From the NCBI GenBank assembly GCA_050302075.1, contig JBNLAH010000001.1, forward strand, positions 320,342-384,341: a stretch of 64,000 nucleotides of DNA. The letters run 5' to 3'. Source of the DNA: Parachlamydiales bacterium (GTDB lineage: Bacteria; Chlamydiota; Chlamydiia; Chlamydiales; SM23-39). Each line of letters starts with the position of its first letter. The first letter of the stretch is position 1. The position numbers and the translations under genes are program-made. This document shows positions 370-15,063 of this stretch, piece by piece. The notes under the pieces are model-generated. The model had not been told where the DNA came from and did not search any database. It saw only the letters and a list, made by a program, of their open reading frames with translations.

Positions 370-969
370 TCAAACTATTATTCCAGTAAGGCTTAAAGTA
401 ATTAAAACCATTCCCATTACTTTTGTAAAAATAGCTCGTTGTCTTTGAAAAAATGGCATAAATTGCGGATGAGTAAAAAAGTATGATATTAGACTGTACC
501 ATATTATTGCAGATACCGGTGCTGCAAGGGCAAAGGCTACCTTCATAGGCAAAGTATTATATGAGTTGGCAAATTGAGTGAACAAACTGATGCAAAAGAA
601 AGTTACCTTTGGATTTAACAAGTTAGTAGAAAGTCCAGCCATAAAAGGGTGTCTTAAAATAGTGTTTTTTTTTGCAGTAGACTCATCTAAAATTTTTCTA
701 AAAACCATTTTTGTTCCTAAATATCCCAAATAAAGTGACCCTAAAATTTTTAACATCAATAAAACTGTTGGTTTTTTTTGTAAAATAAGGGCAACCCCGC
801 TCATACAATAAAAAACATGAAAAAAAAGGGCTAAAGTAATTCCTAGAGCTGCCTGCATAGCGGCTTTTCTAGACCCGGTGAGTCCAAACTTGATAACTAC
901 TGCAAAGTCTGGGCCTGGGCTTACAGCAGCTAAGAGATTTAAGAAGGCAAATGCAAAAAAATCAGTCAC
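370..969 (-). CDS. LysE/RhtB family amino acid exporter
   Basis: SPGPDF and NLLNPK motifs; hydrophobic 199 aa. Confidence 0.9.
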   Translation of the reverse strand: MTDFFAFAFLNLLAAVSPGPDFAVVIKFGLTGSRKAAMQAALGITLALFFHVFYCMSGVALILQKKPTVLLMLKILGSLYLGYLGTKMVFRKILDESTAKKNTILRHPFMAGLSTNLLNPKVTFFCISLFTQFANSYNTLPMKVAFALAAPVSAIIWYSLISYFFTHPQFMPFFQRQRAIFTKVMGMVLITLSLTGIIV

Positions 970-1223: not shown

Positions 1224-1910
1224 ATGGAAATAAATAAAGTGACCTTAGATCAGTGCGAAAGACTAAAGGGAATGGTTATTGTCATCGATGTAATCAGAGC
1301 TTTTACTACTACAGCTTTTGCTTTTTCCTCCGGCGCAGAAAAAATCTATTTAGTAAGCACAATAAAAGAGGCATTTGACCTGCATCATAAAATACCAGAT
1401 TCTCTATTAGTTGGAGAAGCTGAAGGACACCCTGTCAGAGGATTTCATTTCAATAACTCTCCATCTCAAATAAAGAATGCTAATTTAATGGGAAAAGAAC
1501 TAATTATGCGAACCTCATGTGGCTCTCAAGGAATCATAAAAAGCAAAGCAGCTGGCCATTTATTAGCATGCAGCTTTACGAATGCTTATGCAACTTTAGA
1601 GCATATTCGACAAATAAACCCAAATAACCTCACTTTTGTTATAACAAACCAAAATAATGGAGATGAAGACCTTGCTTTGGCTGATTACTTAGAAAAAAAA
1701 CTAACTCAAAAAAATGATGTATCAATTTCACCCTTTCTTGAAAGAGTGAAAAAATCAAATCTAGGGCGTCTTCTACAGAGAAATACTAGCTCTTTTTACC
1801 CATCAACTGACTTAGATACTGTTATTATGGCAAACAAGTTTAATTTCATCATGAAAGTCTCTCATGTTGGGGAAAATTTTATTATGACTAACAAATTTAA
1901 TAAGGCTTAA
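1224..1910 (+). CDS. 2-phosphosulfolactate phosphatase (ComB) family protein
   Basis: VIDVIRAFTT, GE..G...GFHFNNSP and ED motifs typical of the ComB family. Confidence 0.85.
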   Translation: MEINKVTLDQCERLKGMVIVIDVIRAFTTTAFAFSSGAEKIYLVSTIKEAFDLHHKIPDSLLVGEAEGHPVRGFHFNNSPSQIKNANLMGKELIMRTSCGSQGIIKSKAAGHLLACSFTNAYATLEHIRQINPNNLTFVITNQNNGDEDLALADYLEKKLTQKNDVSISPFLERVKKSNLGRLLQRNTSSFYPSTDLDTVIMANKFNFIMKVSHVGENFIMTNKFNKA

Positions 1911-1911
1911 A

Positions 1912-2316
1912 GTGAAGAGAATAAGCAGAGTTGGTTCTTATGGGCTTCTTGTTAAAGAAAGGAAAGTGGCCCTTGTAACTAAGGTGAAAGGTCCATATAC
2001 CGGATTGTTAGATTTACCTGGGGGTAAAATTGAATTTGGTGAATCTTCTTTAGATGCCCTAAAGCGTGAAATACGAGAAGAACTTGCACTAGAAGCTTTC
2101 AACTTAAGTATTTATAGTAGCTACTCTTATTTAGGGGCTTTCAATACAGATAGCCCTTTTCAGTTTCATCATTTAGGAGTTATATACCAAGTAAAGCAAT
2201 TTAAACCTGTTGAAGGTGCTATTCCTGAAGATAAATGGGATTGGTACTCGCTGGACGAATTATCTGAAGATGAATTAACCCCATTTGCTCAACAAGCTAT
2301 AACATCATTTAGATAG
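1912..2316 (+). CDS. NUDIX hydrolase
   Basis: Nudix box PGGKIEFGESSLDALKREIREE; 1 nt downstream of the ComB-like gene. Confidence 0.9.
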   Translation: MKRISRVGSYGLLVKERKVALVTKVKGPYTGLLDLPGGKIEFGESSLDALKREIREELALEAFNLSIYSSYSYLGAFNTDSPFQFHHLGVIYQVKQFKPVEGAIPEDKWDWYSLDELSEDELTPFAQQAITSFR

Positions 2317-2648: not shown

Positions 2649-3446
2649 ATGAATAATTTGACAGAATTAGGACATGCCGTAAACGGATCATTTAGTTTGT
2701 CAGCTTCTTTGCTTGCAACTCAACCATTTTTCACATTAAAAACTTTTCATATGACACAGTCTCAACGCCCTCCTTTTAGGCGACTTTGGGCTGGGTATAT
2801 GCCAAACGCTGTTGCTGGAGGACTTGCTGAAGGAGTAACATTTGTAACATATAAAATTGGTTCTGACTTGTTAAAAAAACAAGGAGAAGAACTAAGTAAC
2901 TATCAGAACATAGCTTTAAGCTTGGCTGCAGGAACTATTGGGGCTCCTATTAATGCTTCTTTCGAACAGGGTATGATCAGACAACAATTATATGGTAATA
3001 GTCTTAGCTATCACATGAAAGATATCTATAAGGCTTCTTCTTGGAAAGGGATATTTAAAGCAACAGGATTTACTGCTGCAAGGGATGGTTTATTTACTTG
3101 TGGAATATTTGCTTTTAATGATTATACGCAATCATTGATAAAACCTATTGTAGCAACACCTTTTTGGAATAACCTTACATCTGGAATGATTTCAGGAATG
3201 GTGGCTGGTTTTTTCAGCACACCATTTGACCTTGTAAAAACAATAGTTCAAGCAGATCCAAAGATAGATCGTACTTGTACAGACATAACTAAAGAAATGA
3301 TAAAAAGAAAAGGTATAGCATCAATTTTTAAAGGGGCAGTTCATCGCTCGCTTACAATTGGGCCTTTGATTTGTTTAACATCTTTGCTTAAAGACCAAAC
3401 ACTAGATTATTTTCCTGAATACTTGAAAACTCAACATTTTGAATAA
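2649..3446 (+). CDS. mitochondrial carrier family (SLC25-like) protein
   Basis: Tripartite repeats with QPFFTLKT, ASFEQGMIR and canonical TPFDLVKT (Px[DE]xx[KR]), each followed by LWAG / GIFKA / SIFKG segments; 265 aa. Confidence 0.8.
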   Translation: MNNLTELGHAVNGSFSLSASLLATQPFFTLKTFHMTQSQRPPFRRLWAGYMPNAVAGGLAEGVTFVTYKIGSDLLKKQGEELSNYQNIALSLAAGTIGAPINASFEQGMIRQQLYGNSLSYHMKDIYKASSWKGIFKATGFTAARDGLFTCGIFAFNDYTQSLIKPIVATPFWNNLTSGMISGMVAGFFSTPFDLVKTIVQADPKIDRTCTDITKEMIKRKGIASIFKGAVHRSLTIGPLICLTSLLKDQTLDYFPEYLKTQHFE

Positions 3447-3464
3447 TTAATATTCTCTATTCTA

Positions 3465-3501
3465 AGAAAAACTGATGAAATTATTTTTCATCAGTTTTTC
3501 T
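3465..3501. terminator. bidirectional intrinsic terminator
   Basis: Perfect 16-bp inverted repeat AGAAAAACTGATGAAA/TTTCATCAGTTTTTCT between convergent genes. Confidence 0.8.
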
Positions 3502-3512
3502 ATTAATAAATG

Positions 3513-4700
3513 CTACACAAGTTTTTCTATAGCTTGATCCAAATCATCAATAATATCTTTGGTTTTTTCGACGCCAATAGATAACCGAATTAAGTCATCG
3601 GAAGTATGATCTATTTGTGAAGTCTTTTTATGATCTTGAGTGACCATAGAATGAGACATTGATTCTGCATGCTCTATGCAACTGTGAAGGCCACCTAAGC
3701 TAACAAACAGACCTACTAAATTGGTATTTTGAATCAATTGGATTGCTGATCCTTGACCTTTTTTTAAAGAAAAAGAGATGACGCCTCCACCATTTTTAAA
3801 TAATTTCTCGGCCAATTGAAATTGGGGGTTAGACTTTAAAAGGGGGTATTGAACTGATTTTATTTTAGGATTAAGTTCAAGATGTTTAGCTATGGCTAGA
3901 GCTGATTTATTTTGTTGTTCTAACCTTAAATGCAGAGTTTTAACTCCTTGAGAAATAAGCCATGAAGCATGAGGGTCTACACAGTTTCCATATAATGTTT
4001 GTGTATGCCAAATTTTTTTAGCAATTTTATGAGAACTTAAAATAGCTCCCCCGAATGATGAGAAGTGCCCACTAATATATTTAGTAAGGCTATGGATTAC
4101 AACATCTACAAAATCTGGAAGATGAACTGATAGATTTCCAGGTGGTGTAAAAGTAGCATCACTTATTGTCACAGCATTTATTTTTGTAGAAATTTCTTTT
4201 ATTTTAATTATATCCGCAATCACAAGATCTGGGTTACTCAAAGTCTCGAAGTAGATAAAAGTTTTATTTTCTTTAGAGGGGAGGGGATTTTTTAAAATTT
4301 CTTCAATATTGTTAATGTCAAAAAAGACAACTTTTATCCCAAATCTAGGTAGCTCTTCAATGAAAAACTTTAAAGTATCTCCATAAAGACGATTTGAAGC
4401 AAATATAACATCATTAGCTTTTACTAATGATAGAAGTGTCGTCGTAATTGCTGACATTCCCGAAGGAAAAATAAGACATTTTTCATAACCACTTATGTTT
4501 GTTAATTGCTTTTCTAAAAAGCTAATTGTTGGGTTGCCCCATCGAGTGTAGTAATCTGTAGGATGGTTTGCATTTTCACAGCGAACAGCCTCTTCATAAG
4601 ACGGCATCTTAAAAACGCTGGTTTGGTAAATTGGTTGGCAAAGAGGATCATTCTTAGCATATACATTGGCTGTTTTCAGCATTTTAGAGGAATTATCCAT
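3513..4700 (-). CDS. PLP-dependent trans-sulfuration family enzyme (cystathionine gamma-synthase/lyase-like)
   Basis: PIYQTSVF, YTRWGNPT, SGMSAI, ETLSNP, HSLTKYISGH (PLP lysine), SLGG, LIRLSIGVE. Confidence 0.92.
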   Translation of the reverse strand: MDNSSKMLKTANVYAKNDPLCQPIYQTSVFKMPSYEEAVRCENANHPTDYYTRWGNPTISFLEKQLTNISGYEKCLIFPSGMSAITTTLLSLVKANDVIFASNRLYGDTLKFFIEELPRFGIKVVFFDINNIEEILKNPLPSKENKTFIYFETLSNPDLVIADIIKIKEISTKINAVTISDATFTPPGNLSVHLPDFVDVVIHSLTKYISGHFSSFGGAILSSHKIAKKIWHTQTLYGNCVDPHASWLISQGVKTLHLRLEQQNKSALAIAKHLELNPKIKSVQYPLLKSNPQFQLAEKLFKNGGGVISFSLKKGQGSAIQLIQNTNLVGLFVSLGGLHSCIEHAESMSHSMVTQDHKKTSQIDHTSDDLIRLSIGVEKTKDIIDDLDQAIEKLV

Positions 4701-4710
4701 AATTAATCCT

Positions 4711-5670
4711 TTAAGGTAATGGTTTAGGTAAAGGAATTTTTCCTGCGAGCAAACCAGGAATTAAAGCTACTTTTTCCCGATCAGCAGAGAGAAAAATCCC
4801 CCCGAAGCATCGATTTATTTTATTATACAAAGGGTCACCCATCATTATTTTATGAGCTTGTTTTAAGTTCCAAAAGGGAATCCCAGGCCTTAGATGGTGA
4901 GTTAGGTGATAGTTTTCATTATGGATACTCAAGAAAAATCCTTCTATCCAATGACTGAATCGATTCCGTGACATTTCTACAGGTTTATCTGAATTTCCTA
5001 GCAGAGGAAAGTGCTCTGCAATTTCAATGAAATGGCCAATTATGATAAATGTTGTAAAATAAGGAACAACCCAAAACGATAAGAACAATGAAAAAAGATC
5101 ATACCTAAAAATTAATGTCAAAATTATTGACCAAAATAAGATAAATTGGATTAGCTCTTTTCGAAATTCATAAAACGAAGTCAGTCGGTGTTTTACTAAA
5201 TAACTAAAATAGGGGAAAGTTTTTAAAAGAAGCAAGGGGTATAAAACATAAGATTTAAGAAATTGTTTTTTGCTAATTCCCTTATACAATCCCTGCGAAA
5301 TGTAAAATTGAAAATCAGGATCATTATTTTTATCTCCTAATGATCCATGATGGAGCATAACATGAGATTTTTTATAAGCATTAAAGCATTGGAGGATCCA
5401 AAATCCTGAAAAAACAGTGCCTATAATATAATTTAAAGTTTTATTCTTAGCTGCCCGATAATGGACAGCTTCATGTAGTATTGTTGCAAGAGCTCTTTGT
5501 CTTGAACCTATCACCAAAATACTCAAAGGGTAAAAATATAAACTGTAGTGTGCTACCATAATAGATAAGATAATCAAACTCCAGTCTACAAAAACAGCCG
5601 CGAGTGTATGGTAATTATCGCATTTTGATAATCGGTTTAATTGAATATTTAGTTCTTTTGAAAATTTCAT
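4711..5670 (-). CDS. membrane His-box desaturase/hydroxylase, RtxC/GntB-like
   Basis: His boxes LHEAVH, SHVMLHH, HNENYHLTHH; IGSRQRALATILHE segment typical of the RtxC/GntB subgroup (from memory). Confidence 0.8.
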   Translation of the reverse strand: MKFSKELNIQLNRLSKCDNYHTLAAVFVDWSLIILSIMVAHYSLYFYPLSILVIGSRQRALATILHEAVHYRAAKNKTLNYIIGTVFSGFWILQCFNAYKKSHVMLHHGSLGDKNNDPDFQFYISQGLYKGISKKQFLKSYVLYPLLLLKTFPYFSYLVKHRLTSFYEFRKELIQFILFWSIILTLIFRYDLFSLFLSFWVVPYFTTFIIIGHFIEIAEHFPLLGNSDKPVEMSRNRFSHWIEGFFLSIHNENYHLTHHLRPGIPFWNLKQAHKIMMGDPLYNKINRCFGGIFLSADREKVALIPGLLAGKIPLPKPLP

Positions 5671-6602
5671 ACCAGCTCCTTTGGAAATGGAATTGGAGGT
5701 CTTTCTCTATAATAACTCCTAGTCAGAGCTTGAAATTTGTCTTTAAATGGTGTAGGTAGTTGATCTATAGTTTTTTGATAGGCAAGTTTTCGTCCGTTTA
5801 ACTCGTCTTGCAAAAGTTTGCGGGCATCGCCTTTATGTAACTTAATGAACATTCTGTAAATATTGAAATCGTTATTTTTAACATCATTTTCATATTGCAT
5901 TAAATCTGCCTCAATATCTCGGATAATCTCAATTCCCTGGATGGCTTGCCATACTTGATCATTTAGAGAGATACCTTTTATTTTTTGGCAAATATGATGG
6001 AGCATCATTACGTCACTAGGTCTTAAACGAATTGCATCTAAAAGCCTTTCATGAGTTATATCAATACCTTTTATCAATTGGTTCTCTAGATTCCAATATT
6101 CAGTTAAGTTATCAGCCTCTTTTTCAATTTTATCAGAGTATAAGCCTAATTCTTTAAGCAACTTCATCAAAGCATTTTTTTGATCAATCCAAGGCTGAAC
6201 ACCTCTAAACGTACTGGGATCTTTTTGACCTTGCTCAATTTCACTATCTGCTTCGTAAACTAGCGATTGAGCAGAAAGAATAATGGGAAAAAAGTCTTTC
6301 ATGAATTGAGCTTCTGTAAAATCGTATAAAGGAGCTACATACTGTGAAAAAAAAGATAGAAATTTCATACTATGCTGGACATTTCTATAAGATAGTAAAG
6401 CCGTATCCGTTATCGAGCAGTTTTTTTTCGAACTGTGAGCATTAGGGTTAGGTGTAAGTGGTACTGCAAATCTTCGCTGATTTAGGTGAGTTCTACTGCT
6501 GGGAAATCTTGAACGAGCAAACAAAGATGGCGTTAAACGCCTATCAAATTGCTTAGACATTGGCCAGAGTGGTTTAAATGAGAGCGATACTTTACAAAGC
6601 AT
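5667..6602 (-). CDS. hypothetical protein with probable class I isoprenoid-synthase-like fold and basic N-terminal extension
   Basis: GGAGG RBS before the ATG; 4-nt overlap with the desaturase; acidic helix RDIEADLMQYENDVKNNDFNIYRMF. Confidence 0.6.
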   Translation of the reverse strand: MLCKVSLSFKPLWPMSKQFDRRLTPSLFARSRFPSSRTHLNQRRFAVPLTPNPNAHSSKKNCSITDTALLSYRNVQHSMKFLSFFSQYVAPLYDFTEAQFMKDFFPIILSAQSLVYEADSEIEQGQKDPSTFRGVQPWIDQKNALMKLLKELGLYSDKIEKEADNLTEYWNLENQLIKGIDITHERLLDAIRLRPSDVMMLHHICQKIKGISLNDQVWQAIQGIEIIRDIEADLMQYENDVKNNDFNIYRMFIKLHKGDARKLLQDELNGRKLAYQKTIDQLPTPFKDKFQALTRSYYRERPPIPFPKELV

Positions 6603-6873
6603 AAATCCTCCAAAAAAATATTTTTCGAAGAACTTACATCAGCACAATTTTTTTTGTACATAATTTTATTAAAAGCTTCTCTATAAAAAAAACATCATTA
6701 ATTCAATTTTAATTTTTAGATTGATTTTTTTTTGAAGATAGTATTTCTTGTTTGAGTATTTTATTTGCTATGCAAGGTTTAAAAAACCTTTATTTTATGG
6801 CAAAAATAAATATAATCCTTGCTAATAGATATTATTTTTTAGATATCTTTTAATAATAATATTCAAAATATAA

Positions 6874-8190
6874 GTGCGTATGACTAAAAAATTGTCTTTT
6901 CCTTCTATTGTTTCTTTAGTAATTGGTAGTCAAATTGGATCCGGAGTTTTTTTACTTCCTTCAAGCTTAGCAACCGTTGGGCCAATTAGCCTTTTTGGAT
7001 GCTTTTTTTCGGGAATGGGTGCCATACTTCTAGCTCTTGTCTTTGCCAAATTAAGTATGACTGTTTCTAATAAAGGTGGCGGTCCTCATATTTATGTTGA
7101 AAGGGCATTTGGAAGGAAAGCAGCTTTTTTTACAGCTTGGACATACTGGCTTGTTTCTTGGGTAAGTAGCCTTGCAGTTATCATTGCAGCAGTAGGATAT
7201 CTTTCATCTTTAATAAATATCCCATCTTCTTTGTTTTTATTAGGAGCTGAGTTAATAATTATTATTGCTGTAACAATGCTCAATATGAGGGGGATTACAG
7301 CAGCTGGAAAATTTGAAATTTTGCTTACGGGAGTCAAGTGCTTGCCTCTTATTGTTGTTCCAATAGCAGGACTTATTGCGCTTAACTTTGATAACCTAAC
7401 TCCCTTGAACCCAAACAATTTAAACGTTTTTAGTGCACTTAATAAAGCTTCTCTTATGACATTTTGGGGTTTTATTGGAATTGAAATGGCGACAACAACT
7501 GCTGGTGTAGCTGAAAATCCATCGAAAACAATACCAAAAGCAATTTTGTTAGGTACTTCTTTTGTAATTCTAGTTTATTTGCTAAGTAGTGTTGCTATCA
7601 TGGGAGTTATCCCACAGTCAATTTTAGAAAAGACTAACGCACCTTATGCAATTGCGACTCAAATAATTTTTGGTCAAGGCTGGGATTTTATTATTGCTGC
7701 ATTGGCCTTTGTTGCATGTATTGGAACTCTGAATGCTTGGATCTTAACAAGTGGTCAAATTGCTTTTGAAGCTTCAAAAGATGGTCTGTTTCCTCCAATT
7801 TTTTCAAAAACAAATAAACTTGGTGCACCTTCTGCAAGCTTAATGATAACTTTAATTATTTCAATATTTTTACTTGTCTTGACTTTGACTCCAAATATCT
7901 TAGAACAAATGAATATGATTATTGATCTTTCAGTTATGACTTTTCTTCTGGTATATTTAATATCTGCAGCAGCGCTTATAAAAATTATAGTACAAGAAAA
8001 ACTGAAAAAGTCCCGTATTTATTTAGCGATAAGCATATTAGGTGGATTGTTTTGTGTTTGGGTACTGGTCTTTGATTCTCTTTTTCATCTTTCGCTTTGC
8101 TCTTTATTTGTAATAAGTGGAATTCCTGTTTATTTATTACAGCAAAAAAGATGGTCTGCAGCTCAAAAAGAAGCATTAGAAAGGCTGTGA
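6874..8190 (+). CDS. APC family amino acid permease
   Basis: IGSGVFLLP, GGPHIYV, FWGFIGIE, ENPSKTIPKA; about 12 hydrophobic segments. Confidence 0.92.
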   Translation: MRMTKKLSFPSIVSLVIGSQIGSGVFLLPSSLATVGPISLFGCFFSGMGAILLALVFAKLSMTVSNKGGGPHIYVERAFGRKAAFFTAWTYWLVSWVSSLAVIIAAVGYLSSLINIPSSLFLLGAELIIIIAVTMLNMRGITAAGKFEILLTGVKCLPLIVVPIAGLIALNFDNLTPLNPNNLNVFSALNKASLMTFWGFIGIEMATTTAGVAENPSKTIPKAILLGTSFVILVYLLSSVAIMGVIPQSILEKTNAPYAIATQIIFGQGWDFIIAALAFVACIGTLNAWILTSGQIAFEASKDGLFPPIFSKTNKLGAPSASLMITLIISIFLLVLTLTPNILEQMNMIIDLSVMTFLLVYLISAAALIKIIVQEKLKKSRIYLAISILGGLFCVWVLVFDSLFHLSLCSLFVISGIPVYLLQQKRWSAAQKEALERL

Positions 8191-8250
8191 TTTTTCAATC
8201 ACATATGGCTGATTGTCAAGTTTTTCCAAAATGAGTGCAAACCTTACTAG

Positions 8251-8760
8251 TCAGATCCAGTTTGGATCTGATTCATCCTCTTCCTGAATAGGAGGTAGCC
8301 CAATACTAAAAATAGAGATTATCTCACTAGCTCTTTCTTCAATTTTTATTAAATTTGTAATCCATTTATCCATTTCTTTATAAATTTCAGGATCCTTATT
8401 ATTAAAAATGGTTACCCAATTCATAATTAAATCAATAACAGGCTCTCTATCTATTGGATCTTGTAATATCCATAGAAATTTATTGAGAGGTTCTATACGC
8501 ATATTTCTAACTAAAAATGGAATAGATAGTTTTATTTCACTTAACTCTATTTTTAAAAAAGATAGGTTTTTGTTGGTTACTTCTTTAATGGTATTAATTA
8601 AGTCATGTTGGCAGATAGCGGAAAAATTATTATTTAAAAAAGGTAAATTCATTTCTGGTGCAAGCTTTGATAATTCTAAATCATCTTTTTGCTTTATAAG
8701 TTTTTTTGCTATTTCATAGTCTGAATACGTTGAACTTGGTGCGCTAGATATTGTAGCCAT
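8251..8760 (-). CDS. hypothetical protein
   Basis: 169-aa ORF with AGGGA RBS and Ser/Thr-rich N-terminus. Confidence 0.6.
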   Translation of the reverse strand: MATISSAPSSTYSDYEIAKKLIKQKDDLELSKLAPEMNLPFLNNNFSAICQHDLINTIKEVTNKNLSFLKIELSEIKLSIPFLVRNMRIEPLNKFLWILQDPIDREPVIDLIMNWVTIFNNKDPEIYKEMDKWITNLIKIEERASEIISIFSIGLPPIQEEDESDPNWI

Positions 8761-9300: not shown

Positions 9301-11814
9301 ATGGGCGATATATCTTTTATATATTCTAAAGAAGCAGAGAAAAGTAGCGTAGAAACTATTTTAAAGTCACTTGAAACAACCAAAGATGGCCTAAAAAGCT
9401 CTGATGCTGACATAAGATTGAAAAAATTTGGATTTAATAGCATTGAAGAGAAGAAAAAGTCTCTTTTTCTTAAAATATTGGGTTATTTTTGGGGTCCAAT
9501 TCCATGGATGATAGAAGCTGCCGCAGTTTTATCTCTAATCATTGGAAATTATGTCGATTTTTATATTATTTTTTCTTTACTTTTAGTTAATGGCGCGGTT
9601 GATTTTTGGGAAGAGTTTCAAGCTGGCAATGCAATAAAAGCCTTAAAAAAAGAATTAGCCTTAACATGCATTGCGAAACGGGATGGTAAATGGTTAAAGC
9701 TAGAAACTAAAAAACTAGTACCTGGAGATATTATCAAATTGAGACTTGGTAATGTTATTCCATCTGATGCTAAATTATTTGAAGGTGATTATCTTTTAGT
9801 AGATCAATCAACGCTTACTGGAGAATCCCTACCCGTTACAAAAAATTCAGGAGAGATTGTTTATTCTGGATCTATTGCAAAACAAGGGGAAATGCTTGCT
9901 GTTGTAACAGCAACTGGTAAAAATACTTTTTTTGGAAAAACAACTAAACTGGTAGAAAATGCCCAACCAGTTTCTCATTTTCAAAAAGCAGTTTTAAAAA
10001 TCGGCGATTATCTCATTTATATGAGCATAATTTTGTCTTCAATACTAATAATCATACAGCTTTTTAAGCATACTCCATACTTAACCCTTTTTCAGTATGT
10101 TTTAATTCTTATAGTTGCTTCAATTCCCGTCGCCCTTCCAGCTGTACTTTCTGTTACTATGGCTTTAGGAGCTTTAAAATTATCTAAAATGAAAACTGTT
10201 GTAACTAAATTAGAATCAATTGAAGAAATCGCAGGCATAGATGTCCTTTGCTGTGATAAAACCGGTACTTTAACACAAAACAAATTAACACTTGGTAAAC
10301 CTTTAATTTTTTCAGATGTTGATGAGAAGACTTTAATTTTATATGGGTCTTTAGCATCGAAAGAAGAAAACCAAGATCCAATAGACCTAGCTATCATACA
10401 ATCATTAAGCAACAAAGATGAGCTAAAAAGATATCAACAAGAAGAATTTTTACCCTTTGATCCTGTGAAAAAAAGATCAGAAGCAAAAGTGAAAGATTCA
10501 GAAGGTAAATTTTTTTATGTCACTAAAGGTGCCCCTCAAATAATTTTAAACCTTTGCAATTTAGAACCCTCTTTGGAAGAAAAAATAAATAAAAGTATCG
10601 ATGATTTTGCTAAAAAAGGGCATCGCACACTGGGAGTTGCTTTATCGCAAGATAAAAAAACTTGGAAATTTTTAGGCATTTTGCCCCTGTTTGATCCTTT
10701 AAGAGAAGATTCAATACAAACAATTAATTTGGCTAAAGAACATGGTATCAAAATTAAAATGCTAACAGGGGATAATATTGCTATAGCTAAGGAAATTGCT
10801 CGTAAACTTAACTTAGGCGATAATTTATGTGTCGCAAATGAATTAATCTCAAAAGATGTCAATGCTGATTCAGAAGCATTTGTAAAAAAAATTGAAAGTA
10901 TGGATGGCTTTGCAGAAGTTTTTCCTGAACATAAATATGATATTGTTAAAGCTCTTCAAAAAGATAAGCATATTGTTGGTATGACAGGTGATGGTGTAAA
11001 TGACTCTCCTGCATTAAAACAGGCCGACGTAGGTATTGCAGTAAGTGGTGCAACTGATGCAGCCAGAGCTGCAGCTTCTATGGTTTCTTTAATCCCTGGT
11101 TTATCAGTTATTATCAAAGCCATTGAGGAGTCAAGAAGAATATTTGAAAGGATGAATAGTTATTCAATTTATCGCATTGCAGAAACTATTAGAATCATGT
11201 TTTTTATCACTCTTTCAATTATTGTTTTCAATTTCTATCCCATATCAGCCATTATGATTATCTTACTTGCTATATTAAATGATATTCCTATTCTTACAAT
11301 AGCGTATGATAACACTGCTGTTGATCCGCAGCCAGTTCGCTGGCAGATGAGACGTGTACTTACTATTTCAACTGTTTTAGGGGCAGTTGGCATACTTTTT
11401 ACTTTTGTTTTGTTGTATATTGCAAAAGAAATACTGAACCTAGATATAAATCAGCTTCAATCTTTTATTTTTCTTAAATTATCTGTAGCAGGACATCAAA
11501 CTCTTTTTATAGCAAGGACAAAAAAACCATTTTTCTTCAGACCATTTCCATCTTTAATTTTATTGATGGCAATTTTAACTACGCAGTTAATTGCGGCATT
11601 GTTAGTTGGAATTGGAATATTCATGACAGCAATTCCGTGGGTTTATATTGGGCTTATCTGGGGATATACAATTATCGAGATGTTTGTTACTGATTTTGTG
11701 AAAATACTATTCTATAAACATTTGAATTTTGAAAGTACACATCATCAAAAATTTCTCAAATTCATAAAAAAAACCCATAAAAATCATTCAGAAGAATTTT
11801 TTACTAATAAATAG
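9301..11814 (+). CDS. plasma-membrane-type proton-efflux P-type ATPase (type IIIA)
   Basis: TGES, IPVALP, DKTGTLT, KGAP, GDGVNDSPALK and the IIIA hallmark LNDIPILTIAYD. Confidence 0.92.
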   Translation: MGDISFIYSKEAEKSSVETILKSLETTKDGLKSSDADIRLKKFGFNSIEEKKKSLFLKILGYFWGPIPWMIEAAAVLSLIIGNYVDFYIIFSLLLVNGAVDFWEEFQAGNAIKALKKELALTCIAKRDGKWLKLETKKLVPGDIIKLRLGNVIPSDAKLFEGDYLLVDQSTLTGESLPVTKNSGEIVYSGSIAKQGEMLAVVTATGKNTFFGKTTKLVENAQPVSHFQKAVLKIGDYLIYMSIILSSILIIIQLFKHTPYLTLFQYVLILIVASIPVALPAVLSVTMALGALKLSKMKTVVTKLESIEEIAGIDVLCCDKTGTLTQNKLTLGKPLIFSDVDEKTLILYGSLASKEENQDPIDLAIIQSLSNKDELKRYQQEEFLPFDPVKKRSEAKVKDSEGKFFYVTKGAPQIILNLCNLEPSLEEKINKSIDDFAKKGHRTLGVALSQDKKTWKFLGILPLFDPLREDSIQTINLAKEHGIKIKMLTGDNIAIAKEIARKLNLGDNLCVANELISKDVNADSEAFVKKIESMDGFAEVFPEHKYDIVKALQKDKHIVGMTGDGVNDSPALKQADVGIAVSGATDAARAAASMVSLIPGLSVIIKAIEESRRIFERMNSYSIYRIAETIRIMFFITLSIIVFNFYPISAIMIILLAILNDIPILTIAYDNTAVDPQPVRWQMRRVLTISTVLGAVGILFTFVLLYIAKEILNLDINQLQSFIFLKLSVAGHQTLFIARTKKPFFFRPFPSLILLMAILTTQLIAALLVGIGIFMTAIPWVYIGLIWGYTIIEMFVTDFVKILFYKHLNFESTHHQKFLKFIKKTHKNHSEEFFTNK

Positions 11815-11889
11815 ATTGTGTGGGACGAAATAGATCTGTTTAAGATTTTTCAGAATTATATCTTTACTGAACCTTCTCAATAGTTTTCT

Positions 11890-12087
11890 TCATTTCTCAT
11901 CGCTAACAACTCCCATATGCCTTTCAATTGCTACTAATTTACCACCACAATCCCAACAAGTATAAGTTGGCATGTAAATCTCATCTTTGAATGTTCTAAG
12001 ACAATCCTTGCATACGTATCTTATGGGTAATTTTTCATATTGCTGTCTATATGAATCTGTAATTGTAAAACTTTTTCTTTTAGTCAT
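11890..12087 (-). CDS. small zinc-ribbon protein
   Basis: CKDC...CWDC; GAGGT RBS upstream. Confidence 0.6.
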   Translation of the reverse strand: MTKRKSFTITDSYRQQYEKLPIRYVCKDCLRTFKDEIYMPTYTCWDCGGKLVAIERHMGVVSDEK

Positions 12088-12150
12088 AGTTAACCTCTAA
12101 TTAAAAGGTGGTTAGTCTAATATTTTTTTAATTTTAATCCCAAAATATTT

Positions 12151-12552
12151 TTAAAAATTTTTTGCTAAGCAAGGTCCCGCCACTGAATCAGGTGTGATTA
12201 ACCATATTACTTTATGAATGAAAAGACTATGCCAACTATTATATTCAGTATAAAAATAAGCTCCCATATATCCTCTTCTCTTAATTTTTGCATTAGCTGC
12301 ACTCCATCCTAAATCATAAATATTCTTAATGGACTTAAATGAGGACATGGGCCAAGTTACAAAATAACTTCCAAAATTATTATCATTCATAAAATCAACA
12401 TGCTTGTAGTTATTTATGGACAATACAAGCAAAGAAAAAGCTACTGCTGAAATTGCTACAGTTTTTAATGTAGTTCTTAGCTTTTCTTTTGTTGGTTCTG
12501 AAGCTCTTGAATCCCATAAATTATTAGCTCTATTTCTAATAACTTTTAACAT
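12151..12552 (-). CDS. hypothetical membrane protein
   Basis: 133 aa, one hydrophobic segment, AGGAG RBS. Confidence 0.6.
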   Translation of the reverse strand: MLKVIRNRANNLWDSRASEPTKEKLRTTLKTVAISAVAFSLLVLSINNYKHVDFMNDNNFGSYFVTWPMSSFKSIKNIYDLGWSAANAKIKRRGYMGAYFYTEYNSWHSLFIHKVIWLITPDSVAGPCLAKNF

Positions 12553-12877
12553 TATTTAGCTCCTAGTTATTACTTTTTAAGACATGTCTGGTTAATAACT
12601 GTCATTTACCTAGAAATTAGTGAATTTTTTTATAATTACTCATCATTAGAAATTTATTTCCCAAGCACTGTTTATAATTTATCTATTAAATGCAATAAGT
12701 ATTTTTTAGATGAATACTATTTAGTTAACTACTGCCTACTAAAGTAATGAGCTTCAAAGTCAAACCATGAAAGCACGCCTAATTTTACACTTTTTTTTAC
12801 TAAATTTCTTTATTTTGACTTGATTAATAAAAATTTGTTCATGATTATGTTTTTTTTTATTTTTACGGAGGCATATT

Positions 12878-13567
12878 ATGGCTGCAGCTTTAAGTTATTC
12901 TAATGTTCATACCTATCAAGGATTATCAGAAATTAATTTTTCTAAAGATGACAATAATAGACTTTCAGTTACTATTGATACTCTTCGTTTGCACATCAGA
13001 ACTGTAGAGGCAACGGAATCAGAATATGAGAACTATGCAGCTCTTTTCGGAGATGAAGTTGTCATGTCAAAATTTGGTAGTGGAAATACAAGAACTAAAG
13101 AAAACTTGATAGGACGTATACAAGGTTGGGTTGCCCGTTGGCAAACTCTAGACCCTTATGCAGGTCTATCTGTTTTTGATAAAGATACTAAAGAATTTTT
13201 AGGTCACATAGTTTTAGGACATAGTGTAGCTCCAGGAGAGTCTGAGTTAGCTTATATTTTTCATCAGGAATATTGGGGAAAAGGATATGGAAAGGAAGCT
13301 GTCAGAGCAATTGTTGAAGAATATGCTCCAGCAACTGTACAGGAAGGTTATACTTTAGACGGAAAGCCTCTTCAAAAAATAGTGGCAACTACTAGAACTG
13401 ATAATATTGCTTCAGTTTCAATTTTAGAAAGATTGGGAATGCATTTAGATAAGGAAGAAGAAAAATTCGGTGCAAAAAGGCATCATTATTCAATAGAATT
13501 GAATGAAATTCAGAAAAAAAGTAGTGAAAAAACTAAGTCCCTTGTTTCAAATATTTTAGAAGGGTAA
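12878..13567 (+). CDS. GNAT N-acetyltransferase (RimJ/RimL-like)
   Basis: ELAY...YWGKGYGKEA and NIASVSILERLGM; GGAGG RBS. Confidence 0.88.
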   Translation: MAAALSYSNVHTYQGLSEINFSKDDNNRLSVTIDTLRLHIRTVEATESEYENYAALFGDEVVMSKFGSGNTRTKENLIGRIQGWVARWQTLDPYAGLSVFDKDTKEFLGHIVLGHSVAPGESELAYIFHQEYWGKGYGKEAVRAIVEEYAPATVQEGYTLDGKPLQKIVATTRTDNIASVSILERLGMHLDKEEEKFGAKRHHYSIELNEIQKKSSEKTKSLVSNILEG

Positions 13568-13735
13568 TTATAATTTATATTTTACTATAAGTATTTTTTT
13601 GTGAGCATGATAAGACAACACAAAATAAGAGGTAACTTTCACTTATTTTTAGCAGATCAGATGTCTTTAGGGTAGTTCAAAATCGATGTTTGTTTTGCAA
13701 AAGTAAAAAACAACTTTCTTACAAAGGAGATAAAA

Positions 13736-14035
13736 ATGACTTCAGCTCTAAGTAATAGATGTTATCCAAACGAGCACACTTTAATTAATGGTATTAAGAA
13801 CTCTGATTCCTATATAACTGTGAGTAAGCACTACGAAGGGTTAGCAAAACAGGCTCTTAATGTGCTGGCTTGTTATTTTTCAGAAAAAATGATTGATACT
13901 GATAGCATAAGGCAAGAAGTAGACTCTAATCTAGAAAGTAATTTAAAAGCTGATAACTATCTGGAGAAGACAATTGTTGCAGAAGTCATGATCCGTATTT
14001 TGAATCAGATTGCTTCAGATATTTTAAATAAATAA
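13736..14035 (+). CDS. hypothetical protein
   Basis: 99 aa, AGGAG RBS, followed by an imperfect hairpin near 14053-14098. Confidence 0.55.
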   Translation: MTSALSNRCYPNEHTLINGIKNSDSYITVSKHYEGLAKQALNVLACYFSEKMIDTDSIRQEVDSNLESNLKADNYLEKTIVAEVMIRILNQIASDILNK

Positions 14036-14322
14036 AGAGATCTTCAATATATTAAAATATGCGTTCTTTTGTATTTTTAAAAAAACGCGTATTTTTTATT
14101 ACATTCGAAGCTTTTTCATAAATAGTGATTTTTAATTTAGCAATGAAGTGAAGTTAGAAATCTAGACTAACTCTAGAAATTCCATAGATCTACAAATTCA
14201 CTCAAATATTAAGGATGCAATAAGTCTCTTGATGTAGCATATTTGCACCTTAGAAAGGCATTGAAAAATAACTTAGTGATCTAACATAGTACCCCCTTCT
14301 TTTAATTCAATGAGGTATTTTC

Positions 14323-15063
14323 ATGAAATGGGTTCTATGTCTGCTATTTGTATCAAAAGGATTTAGTTTCTCTTCCCATTTAGAAACTTCTAGTCAGTTA
14401 ATAGTGGTGATTACAGAGGACTGGACCAATATTCAAGGTATTATGAGATGCTTTGAAAAAACTGAGGAAGGAAAATGGCAACAAATCGGAAATGATATTC
14501 CCACCGTTGTTGGAAAAAATGGAATGGGCTGGGGACTGGGATTACATGAACCAATAGATGAAGAGCCCTTGAAAAGAGAAGGTGATGGTAAATCACCGGC
14601 CGGTATTTTTACTTTAGGAACTGCTTTTGGACATACTGCCATTGAACACATGATGCAGATTAAGATGCCTTACCTGGAGATCAATCCTTGGACTGAAGCA
14701 ATAGGCGATCCAAAATCTCAATTTTATAATCAGATTCTCGATACTAGGAATATTATTGAACCAGATTGGAATCCACAAAAAAATGAGCAAATGGGATCTA
14801 TTGCGCTTTACTTAAGGGGCATTGTTATCAATCATAATGAAAGTCCTGCCTTCAAAGGTCGAGGCTCCCATATTTTTTTACATATTTGGAGATTATCTAA
14901 TTATGGAACTGCAGGATGTACAGCAGTATCACCAGAAAATATGGATAAGCTATTTTATTGGTTAGATCCTCAAAAAAAACCTTTGATAATACAATTTCCA
15001 AAAGTTGTCCAATCTCTGGTTATGAAGCAATGGAAAATAGAAGACATTAACTTTAATTATTAA
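14323..15063 (+). CDS. L,D-transpeptidase (YkuD-like) family protein
   Basis: KREGDGKSPAG and IFLHIW...GTAGC (catalytic His/Cys); short signal-like N-terminus. Confidence 0.85.
   Translation: MKWVLCLLFVSKGFSFSSHLETSSQLIVVITEDWTNIQGIMRCFEKTEEGKWQQIGNDIPTVVGKNGMGWGLGLHEPIDEEPLKREGDGKSPAGIFTLGTAFGHTAIEHMMQIKMPYLEINPWTEAIGDPKSQFYNQILDTRNIIEPDWNPQKNEQMGSIALYLRGIVINHNESPAFKGRGSHIFLHIWRLSNYGTAGCTAVSPENMDKLFYWLDPQKKPLIIQFPKVVQSLVMKQWKIEDINFNY

Follow-up and report, generated by a model that had tools for sequence, protein, structure and literature searches.

A three-gene operon of a Parachlamydiales bacterium encoding a GntB-like enzyme, a Cys/Met-family PLP enzyme and a protein with a predicted terpenoid-synthase fold

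The operon and its three proteins

The window analysed here is a stretch of 64,000 nucleotides from a Parachlamydiales bacterium (contig JBNLAH010000001.1, positions 320,342 to 384,341). It carries an operon of three genes, here called A, B and C, for which a role in the synthesis of a modified arginine is proposed below. All three are found on the minus strand; gene A (6602-5667) encodes 311 amino acids, gene B (5670-4711) 319 and gene C (4700-3513) 395. The operon was first described from the window's list of open reading frames, as an unknown protein, a desaturase with histidine boxes and a Cys/Met-type enzyme dependent on pyridoxal phosphate (PLP), coupled and followed by a strong terminator, and the reading frames, junctions and hairpin are all seen in the sequence. 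The end of A and the start of B share ATGA, AAGGAG lies 6 nt 5' of the ATG of B, and B and C are separated by a 10-nt spacer containing AGGA (TAA-AGGATTAATT-ATG). A GGAGG is found 4 nt ahead of the ATG of A (6602). Directly past the stop codon of C, and shared with a convergent gene, folding places a hairpin terminator (3447-3512, minus strand) with a perfect stem of 16 bp and a stability of -22.4 kcal/mol (z -7.2); none of 200 shuffled sequences was as stable. A simple terminator scan gave three sites against 1.9 expected and none at this hairpin, because the T run is partly inside the stem. The divergent intergenic region between A and an antiporter gene (6603-6873) reads as AT-rich, the GC content being 0.274 in 6501-7000, and presumably holds the promoters, even if a promoter scan of the region gave 10 promoter-like sites against 15.6 expected by chance, none of them above chance. 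The GC content of the cluster is 0.30-0.37 and shows no contrast to the flanks.

Judged from its family scores, B is a membrane diiron enzyme of the fatty acid (FA) desaturase family and a near-equivalog of the L-arginine gamma-hydroxylase GntB. It gives 115.5 bits with PF00487 (FA_desaturase) in Pfam. With the NCBIfam model NF041365 (GntB, L-arginine gamma-(S)-hydroxylase) it gives 372.5 bits over model positions 4-301 of 308, which misses the curated cut-off (380) by 7.5 bits and leaves B outside formal membership. The next-best NCBIfam models are carotene hydroxylase (CrtR, 51 bits) and DesA (32.5 bits), and by these scores B is not a lipid desaturase. The original prediction had named GntB as a relative of the desaturase-like gene, and had considered that the enzyme might act on membrane lipids instead; the family scores place B on the arginine-hydroxylase side. 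An orthologue in the Chlamydiae metagenome-assembled genome L004, 67% identical to B, gives 400.4 bits on the GntB model, and a Nostocales B-like protein whose gene adjoins a true GntC homologue gives 384.1 bits. Histidines H66, H70, H103, H107, H108, H220, H250, H255, H258, H259, and H273 do not vary in an alignment of 37 homologues, and the histidine boxes of a desaturase-type diiron site are present (H66/H70, H103/H107/H108, and H255/H258/H259). It is highly probable that B hydroxylates arginine. PMC10367076 calls GntB a "transmembrane enzyme" with gamma-hydroxyarginine as its product. In a review (PMC12371840) it is named an alpha-ketoglutarate-dependent non-heme iron enzyme, a label that does not fit the family, which is of the membrane FA-desaturase type in both Pfam and NCBIfam. 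A GntC-type cyclodehydratase is not found beside B, as the gene downstream belongs to PF01053 and not to PF00155.

That downstream gene, C, encodes a PLP enzyme of the Cys/Met-metabolism (gamma) family, and from its sequence it is proposed to be a gamma-hydroxyarginine dehydratase/cyclase. It gives 339.1 bits with PF01053 (Cys_Met_Meta_PP) in Pfam. Among the best 25 of its 45 NCBIfam matches it reaches no curated cut-off, the top match being the methionine gamma-lyase model TIGR01328 (met_gam_lyase) with 289.1 bits against a cut-off of 549.7. By these cut-offs C is thus no equivalog of methionine gamma-lyase, cystathionine gamma-synthase, cystathionine beta-lyase or O-acylhomoserine sulfhydrylase, and the concern that it might be an ordinary MetB or methionine gamma-lyase falls away. 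Among solved structures, methionine gamma-lyases come closest to C (E 4e-69). C is not of the GntC/VioD type (PF00155; models NF041364 and TIGR03947) either, since the GntC model NF041364, on which true GntC homologues score 396, is absent from the same best 25 of 45 matches; by family assignment it is unrelated to GntC, the known cyclase. According to PMC10367076, GntC is an aminotransferase-class enzyme (8FFT) that was solved by molecular replacement with an aminotransferase and is closest to VioD and OrfR, and the same paper likens it to an intermolecular gamma-substitution enzyme such as cystathionine gamma-synthase.

The relatives of C comprise 127 database matches at E ≤ 1e-60. A distinct clade of 38 clusters shows at least 43% identity and at least 314 bits, while generic lyases start at 276 bits. 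When 39 members of the clade were compared with 82 generic proteins, the catalytic set (Y51, R53, Y106, D181, S204, T206, K207, and R372) was found to be conserved in the clade as well as in the outgroup, and K207 aligns with the PLP lysine motif of methionine gamma-lyase. In addition, 23 positions are specific to the clade, including the invariant E42, Y50, P79, D108, F127, W231, and Q234, and the clade has Q251 where 96% of the generic proteins carry an arginine. E42, Y50, and D108 align with F49, I57, and C115 of the Citrobacter methionine gamma-lyase, which we take to line the pocket around the distal group of the substrate. Two new invariant acids at this place (E42 and D108) would suit a guanidinium group. 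C probably acts on the product of B, and we regard the chances that the joint product is cyclic as even.

A has no sequence match in Pfam, NCBIfam or PDB, and 11 homologues at E ≤ 0.001 were found among 5.8 billion clusters. An AlphaFold (AF2) model based on these homologues, with a mean predicted local distance difference test (pLDDT) value of 79.7 and a predicted template modelling score (pTM) of 0.75, is all-alpha from residue 62 and disordered in residues 1-60 (pLDDT below 50). The model supports a class I terpenoid-synthase/prenyltransferase fold with a core of about residues 62-311. In a VIA-align comparison with 48,161 chains, all of the 50 top matches had this fold, with 204-239 residues aligned at a root-mean-square deviation of 3.6-5.1 and Z values of 11.4-14.7; since Z values of 11-14 are near the range for unrelated helical proteins, and the tool warns of generic helical matches below about 13, the assignment rests on the uniformity of the list. 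Foldseek returned weak matches that are mostly terpene synthases (best E 1.6e-2). The ESM Atlas places A with unnamed clusters (0.96-0.97), the nearest named one being DUF2600 (tetraprenyl-beta-curcumene synthase, 0.89), which is a lead only.

A profile search of 1.84 billion representatives gave 312 relatives of A, 157 of them at E ≤ 1e-10. When 81 out of the best 150 were scanned with Pfam, 75 had no Pfam family; two carry a fused Pyr4-like transmembrane terpene cyclase, one is joined to a methyltransferase and to lipocalin domains of the CrtC type, and one to a radical S-adenosylmethionine (SAM) C-terminal domain. The family conserves Y116, D119, E123, Y169, E173, D197, D233, Y237, D240, and N247 (112 aligned members), and the motifs YxxD119xxxE123 and D233LxxY237xxD240...N247 are found near the ends of two long helices in the model, presumably the same places as those of the canonical terpenoid-synthase motifs. 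The isoprenoid-synthase-like partner of the original prediction thus stands at the level of the fold, by the model, Foldseek and VIA-align, while prenylation remains a guess that we hold to be somewhat unlikely. IspH is present in the window's genome. Two other identities of A were tried and rejected. A diverged YqcI/YcgG protein, which has the same place in a Pseudomonas operon, showed no similarity by BLASTP (E 0.47), and a heme-oxygenase-like diiron oxidase does not agree with a single invariant histidine (H202).

The N-terminus of A varies within the family. Residues 1-60 (6602-6420, minus strand) form an extension rich in Arg, Ser and Pro, which is kept in a 78% identical protein (P0122, locus L089). 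Several homologues have no extension, and three have a hydrophobic, signal-peptide-like start (L004 6082-6240, P0124, and P0129).

Inheritance and genomic context

B loci were collected by a degenerate-pattern scan using one genome per species, which gave 162 relatives; the best 80 loci were used, and partner genes were counted within 5 kb of B. A GntC homologue is found beside B in 28 of the 80 (matching 8FFT at E 6.7e-142), and a C-clade gene in six, or seven when the window is counted. Another six, all cyanobacterial, have a different cystathionine-gamma-synthase-like gene that is 32-33% identical to C, while the remaining 40 have no PLP partner. EamA exporters are found in 29 of the loci and non-ribosomal peptide synthetases (NRPS) in 19.

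The type of partner tracks a likelihood tree of 81 B proteins, with 10 changes compared with 34.3 in shuffles. The B proteins of the window and L004 are sisters (support 100) within a clade of eight (support 99), of which seven have a C-clade partner. Since kin share labels, the pattern demonstrates joint inheritance of B and C, but not a function. Cys/Met enzymes have been recruited beside GntB-like genes at least three times on the B tree, and in 12 of the 38 C-clade clusters the longest contig is equal in size to that of a B homologue. The neighbourhoods and the tree thus show that the genes are co-conserved elsewhere, which the original prediction had left to be checked, and together with the family scores they bear out its idea of a small biosynthetic module for a modified amino acid rather than housekeeping genes.

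The composition of the loci differs between lineages. In Pseudomonas and Paucimonas the operon order is YqcI/YcgG, B, C, an ArgG-like gene, and EamA. The ArgG-like protein matches TIGR00032 with 334 bits, and a LysR/TOBE regulator adjoins the operon (L009 6136-11390, L011, and L005). Two Burkholderiales loci (L052 and L010) have HlyD/ABC/MacB export genes between B and C. The former also contains an NRPS terminus (C-A-T-TE-TE), an Asp/Asn hydroxylase, an MFS transporter and a Cupin_8 protein, and the latter LuxR, Cupin_8 and phosphopantetheinyl transferase (PPTase) genes.

Homologues of B and C are also found in Eleftheria terrae, under the consecutive accessions AJF34466.1 (fatty acid desaturase) and AJF34467.1 (cystathione beta lyase). 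The genome copies WKB55705.1 and WKB55710.1 are five genes apart on one contig of 784,157 bp. We take E. terrae to be the producer of teixobactin and teixobactin to contain allo-enduracididine, for which, to our knowledge, no biosynthetic genes have been assigned. The pairs of E. terrae and the Burkholderiales may supply enduracididine. Searches of full texts, with subscription journals and bioRxiv supplements outside their coverage, gave no paper that ties the enduracididine of teixobactin or any other enduracididine to a GntB-like and Cys/Met-family pair, and one for GntB homologues gave nothing relevant. Within this coverage the pairing has not been described before.

GntB-like genes without a PLP partner are found in, among others, loci L006-L008, L012, L019, L022, L025, L026, L028, L035, L039, L049, L050, and L060, including the Bacillus pumilus group, Moraxella, Neisseria, Acinetobacter and Campylobacter coli. 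Many of them are accompanied by an EamA exporter, which suggests that hydroxyarginine itself is the exported product there. GntB-like genes also recur in amoeba-associated or intracellular lineages, namely Legionellaceae, Legionella beliardensis, Paracaedibacteraceae and Paracaedimonas acanthamoebae (L024, L029, L032, L036, L041, and L047; P0071 and P0116), and in L024 an APC transporter gene adjoins the GntB-like gene. In Tychonema and Microcoleus the neighbour is the second cystathionine-gamma-synthase-like enzyme (L055, L058, L061, L064, L065, and L070); these pairs fall at two separate places on the B tree, and the enzyme of L064 scores 373 against 513 with NF005871.

Gene A is found in three of 400 scored Chlamydiota genomes, namely the window's own, G249 and G343; one further genome lies outside the scored set. 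The window and G249 (L004) both carry the A-B-C triad, which was also read from the matching sizes of contigs (7,742 and 4,756 bp). In L089 the antiporter gene, A and B follow each other in the same order as in the window before the contig ends. G343 belongs to the same family as the window's genome and is 100% complete, but has no GntB match. Here a GntC/VioD-like enzyme follows directly after A (L087; 300 bits with the GntC model and 221 with the VioD model). Genes for a NUDIX protein, a RaSEA-like radical SAM protein (TIGR01210, 207.8 bits against a cut-off of 212) and a GadC-like APC transporter converge on this pair from the opposite strand, the whole cluster covering 9713-14981. A second locus (L090, 575-4832, plus strand) has A, NUDIX, radical SAM, APC and GntC-like genes in one overlapping operon; compared with G343 its radical SAM gene is 54% and its GntC-like gene 55% identical. 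A thus accompanies both of the unrelated kinds of arginine-cyclising PLP enzyme. Of the indirect arguments for a GntC-like role of C, and for A acting on the same family of metabolites, this is the strongest.

Divergent from the operon is a gene for an APC-family basic amino acid/polyamine antiporter (6874-8190, plus strand). Its NCBIfam scores are all below cut-off (TIGR00905 262 bits, the AdiC model 257 and the PotE model 237), and the protein resembles arginine/agmatine and putrescine/ornithine antiporters. The synteny is kept in the metagenome locus L089, where the antiporter is 94% identical, and a close orthologue is found in one of 40 relatives. From its sequence the antiporter probably supplies arginine, exports the product, or both. 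Just past it lies a reading frame of 169 amino acids without a Pfam family (8251-8760, minus strand).

On the other side, the gene convergent with the operon encodes a mitochondrial-carrier-family (SLC25-like) protein (2649-3446, plus strand; PF00153, 90 bits). In G374 (L095) two such Mito_carr genes flank a GntB-like gene (4176-5024, minus strand, and 7858-8649, plus strand), and the gene may be linked to the operon. This link is weak because the family is also found in eight of 41 relatives; it was found in none of 14 control genomes. A LysE-type amino acid exporter is encoded 2.5 kb past C (370-969, minus strand; PF01810, 108 bits), and as LysE genes adjoin GntB-like genes in L076 and L095 it may also be linked. 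A gene of the ComB-like 2-phosphosulfolactate phosphatase family followed by a NUDIX gene (1224-2316, plus strand) is located between the LysE and Mito_carr genes.

The cluster is rare among the chlamydiae. In 40 relatives (24 of the same family and 16 of the same order) no match to the GntB model exceeded 27 bits. At E ≤ 1e-30 it matches three of the 400 Chlamydiota genomes: the window's own, G249, and G374 with a diverged copy, which sits together with LysE, two Mito_carr genes, a GntC/VioD-like enzyme and an ornithine-cyclodeaminase-family gene. A and matches to the GntB model are each found in three of 400 genomes, which supports the remark made at the outset that such a cluster is unexpected in a chlamydia. 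The window's genome, which is 96.2% complete, has no NRPS condensation domain, no ArgH over cut-off and no GntA. It has no GntC over cut-off either, the best match being 142.5 bits against 415 and located about 285 kb away; with GntA missing too, the operon is therefore not part of a guanitoxin pathway. We read it as a horizontally acquired module that turns imported arginine into a free, exported amino acid, and neither as a guanitoxin pathway nor as a feeder of an NRPS.

A proposed pathway and its alternatives

On balance we favour a pathway in which B adds a gamma-hydroxyl group to arginine and C, by dehydration and ring closure, turns the result into an enduracididine-type amino acid, with A perhaps modifying this product or a precursor before export. 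From the identities and coupling of the genes, their co-inheritance and the fold of A, we infer the following chemical steps. Arginine, which the organism does not make, would be imported, probably through the adjacent APC antiporter. B would then hydroxylate C-gamma of L-arginine in the manner of GntB. C would form an external aldimine and eliminate the gamma-hydroxyl group via a vinylglycine-type ketimine, after which the guanidine of the substrate itself may add back, closing a five-membered guanidine ring and yielding enduracididine or allo-enduracididine. In this way C would do the job of GntC although it is unrelated to it. A, with its two acidic motifs, is placed in the same pathway and possibly transfers a prenyl group from a diphosphate donor. 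The final amino acid would be exported, exporters and antiporters being found on the flanks of the cluster.

Several observations weigh against this proposal. With a typical gamma-family enzyme a hydroxyl group leaves poorly, and C could instead be a gamma-lyase releasing a keto acid. Neither the C clade nor the A family has a characterised member, and B falls short of the GntB cut-off, as given above. One member of the B clade of eight (L016) has no C gene within 7 kb. The NRPS by L052, with its Asp/Asn hydroxylase, may make a peptide without enduracididine, so that it is chiefly E. terrae that connects these genes to enduracididine. As to A, the VIA-align values have the limit already mentioned, Foldseek found nothing in the PDB at E ≤ 0.001, and the 112-member alignment shows no canonical DDxxD and NSE/DTE (or second DDxxD) motifs. 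The signal-peptide-like N-termini of three homologues are also awkward for the use of a cytosolic prenyl diphosphate donor.

The first step may also serve catabolism or salvage. C would then act as a gamma-lyase on hydroxylated arginine and yield an unsaturated 2-oxo-5-guanidino acid and ammonia, as a source of nitrogen or energy or as a means to deplete the arginine of the host. That the closest solved relatives of C are methionine gamma-lyases agrees with this, and so does the arginine-type antiporter adjoining the operon; PMC10367076 cites a canavanine gamma-lyase of the Cys/Met family, the substrate of which is a guanidino amino acid. The clade of C is, however, set apart from the lyases by the drop from 314 to 276 bits and by its 23 specific positions. 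Its genes have an NRPS locus and exporters (EamA, LysE, and MacB/HlyD) as their surroundings instead of catabolic genes, and the Pseudomonas operon holds an ArgG-like synthase and no degradative enzymes. We consider such a role unlikely.

An equally low probability is given to a linear product. Here gamma-hydroxyarginine would be the end product or be used otherwise, with C adding a second nucleophile, perhaps supplied or activated by A, to give a linear gamma-substituted arginine. According to PMC10367076 gamma-family enzymes typically use external nucleophiles. The 40 loci without a PLP partner and the 29 with EamA indicate that hydroxyarginine can be an end product, and in chlamydiae A is conserved with the B-C pair. 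Outside the chlamydiae, on the other hand, B and C pair without A, and A also pairs with GntC/VioD-like cyclases, the known chemistry of which is intramolecular.

The comparison with rhizobitoxine made in the original prediction finds no support. In such a pathway the PLP enzyme would have an O-acylhomoserine and an alcohol or amine as its substrates and couple them, the vinyl bond would come from the desaturase, and RtxA and RtxC presumably pair the same two protein families. B, however, matches the GntB model over its full length with 372.5 bits and groups with arginine-hydroxylase-type proteins, no RtxC-type model is among its NCBIfam matches (Rtx sequences themselves were not compared), and C is a single domain of 395 amino acids with no fused aminotransferase part. 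The evidence favours gamma-hydroxyarginine chemistry with a non-homologous stand-in for GntC over a vinyl ether, and a rhizobitoxine-like pathway is very improbable. Least probable of all, and refuted by family scores and co-inheritance, is ordinary metabolism, with a lipid desaturase and a MetB or methionine gamma-lyase as chance neighbours, which has generic Pfam names in its favour and against it the DesA (32.5) and CrtR (51) scores compared with 372.5 bits for GntB, the position of C below the curated cut-offs, the co-inheritance of the B-C pair across phyla, and the absence of any GntB match above 27 bits in the 40 relatives.

Relation to known systems

If the proposed pathway to an enduracididine-type amino acid is true, it has several implications. 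Enduracididine is a costly bottleneck in the making of teixobactin-type antibiotics, and there would be immediate use for a two-gene route consisting of a GntB-like enzyme and a Cys/Met-family cyclase, maybe leading to the allo isomer. With two unrelated PLP folds serving one gamma-hydroxyarginine chemistry, the route would also clearly exemplify non-orthologous displacement. Through A, a family without a Pfam model that counts at least 312 cluster representatives would gain a first hint of its function. A horizontally acquired and exported arginine analogue in an arginine-auxotrophic intracellular bacterium further suggests a new interaction with the host. A wider scheme, which we regard as speculative and rather improbable, would make the C clade a second, independently evolved enduracididine synthase on a cystathionine-gamma-synthase scaffold and the missing source of allo-enduracididine in producers of teixobactin-type compounds. 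In a few chlamydiae it would have been joined to the A family to yield a modified, for example prenylated, cyclic arginine analogue that is swapped for host arginine via the antiporter and acts on the arginine or nitric-oxide metabolism of the host.

Among systems already known, RtxA and RtxC are the most distant, as the grouping of B is with GntB instead of a vinyl-ether desaturase and C has no fused domain; what they share is the pairing of the same two superfamilies. The fold of A relates it to DabA/KabA-type N-prenyltransferases and class I terpenoid synthases, the model aligning with these over about 210-236 residues. The amino-acid N-prenyltransferase DabA (6vkz) has a Z value of 11.6 to the model, and A relatives are fused to Pyr4-like cyclases. 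A differs from all these enzymes in having no Pfam-detectable similarity and in its motifs, which are DxxxE and DLxxYxxD.

C shares with cystathionine gamma-synthase, methionine gamma-lyase and canavanine gamma-lyase the fold, all catalytic residues and gamma-elimination via a vinylglycine ketimine. Where the lyase has Cys115, however, C carries an Asp that is invariant, and Glu and Tyr stand in the places of F49 and I57. The MppP/MppQ/MppR system for enduracididine in actinobacteria has the same presumed class of product, but according to PMC10367076 and PMC5238550 it uses an unrelated PLP oxidase, an acetoacetate-decarboxylase-like cyclase and a transaminase. The E. terrae pair and the Burkholderiales loci L010 and L052 are closer, as they belong to the B subclade of the window and to the C clade (45-47% identity) and have transporters between or beside the B and C homologues. 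L010 and L052 differ from the window in having NRPS, LuxR or PPTase genes nearby and no gene A, while the window's genome has no condensation domain.

The likeness extends furthest to GntB and GntC of guanitoxin synthesis, where an L-arginine gamma-hydroxylase and a PLP cyclodehydratase lead to L-enduracididine. In the window C belongs to PF01053 instead of PF00155, gene A is added and the genome has no GntA. In both systems a hydroxylase gene is followed by a PLP enzyme gene and B is a near-equivalog of GntB, while the gamma-elimination and intramolecular addition proposed for C would be those described for GntC in PMC10367076.

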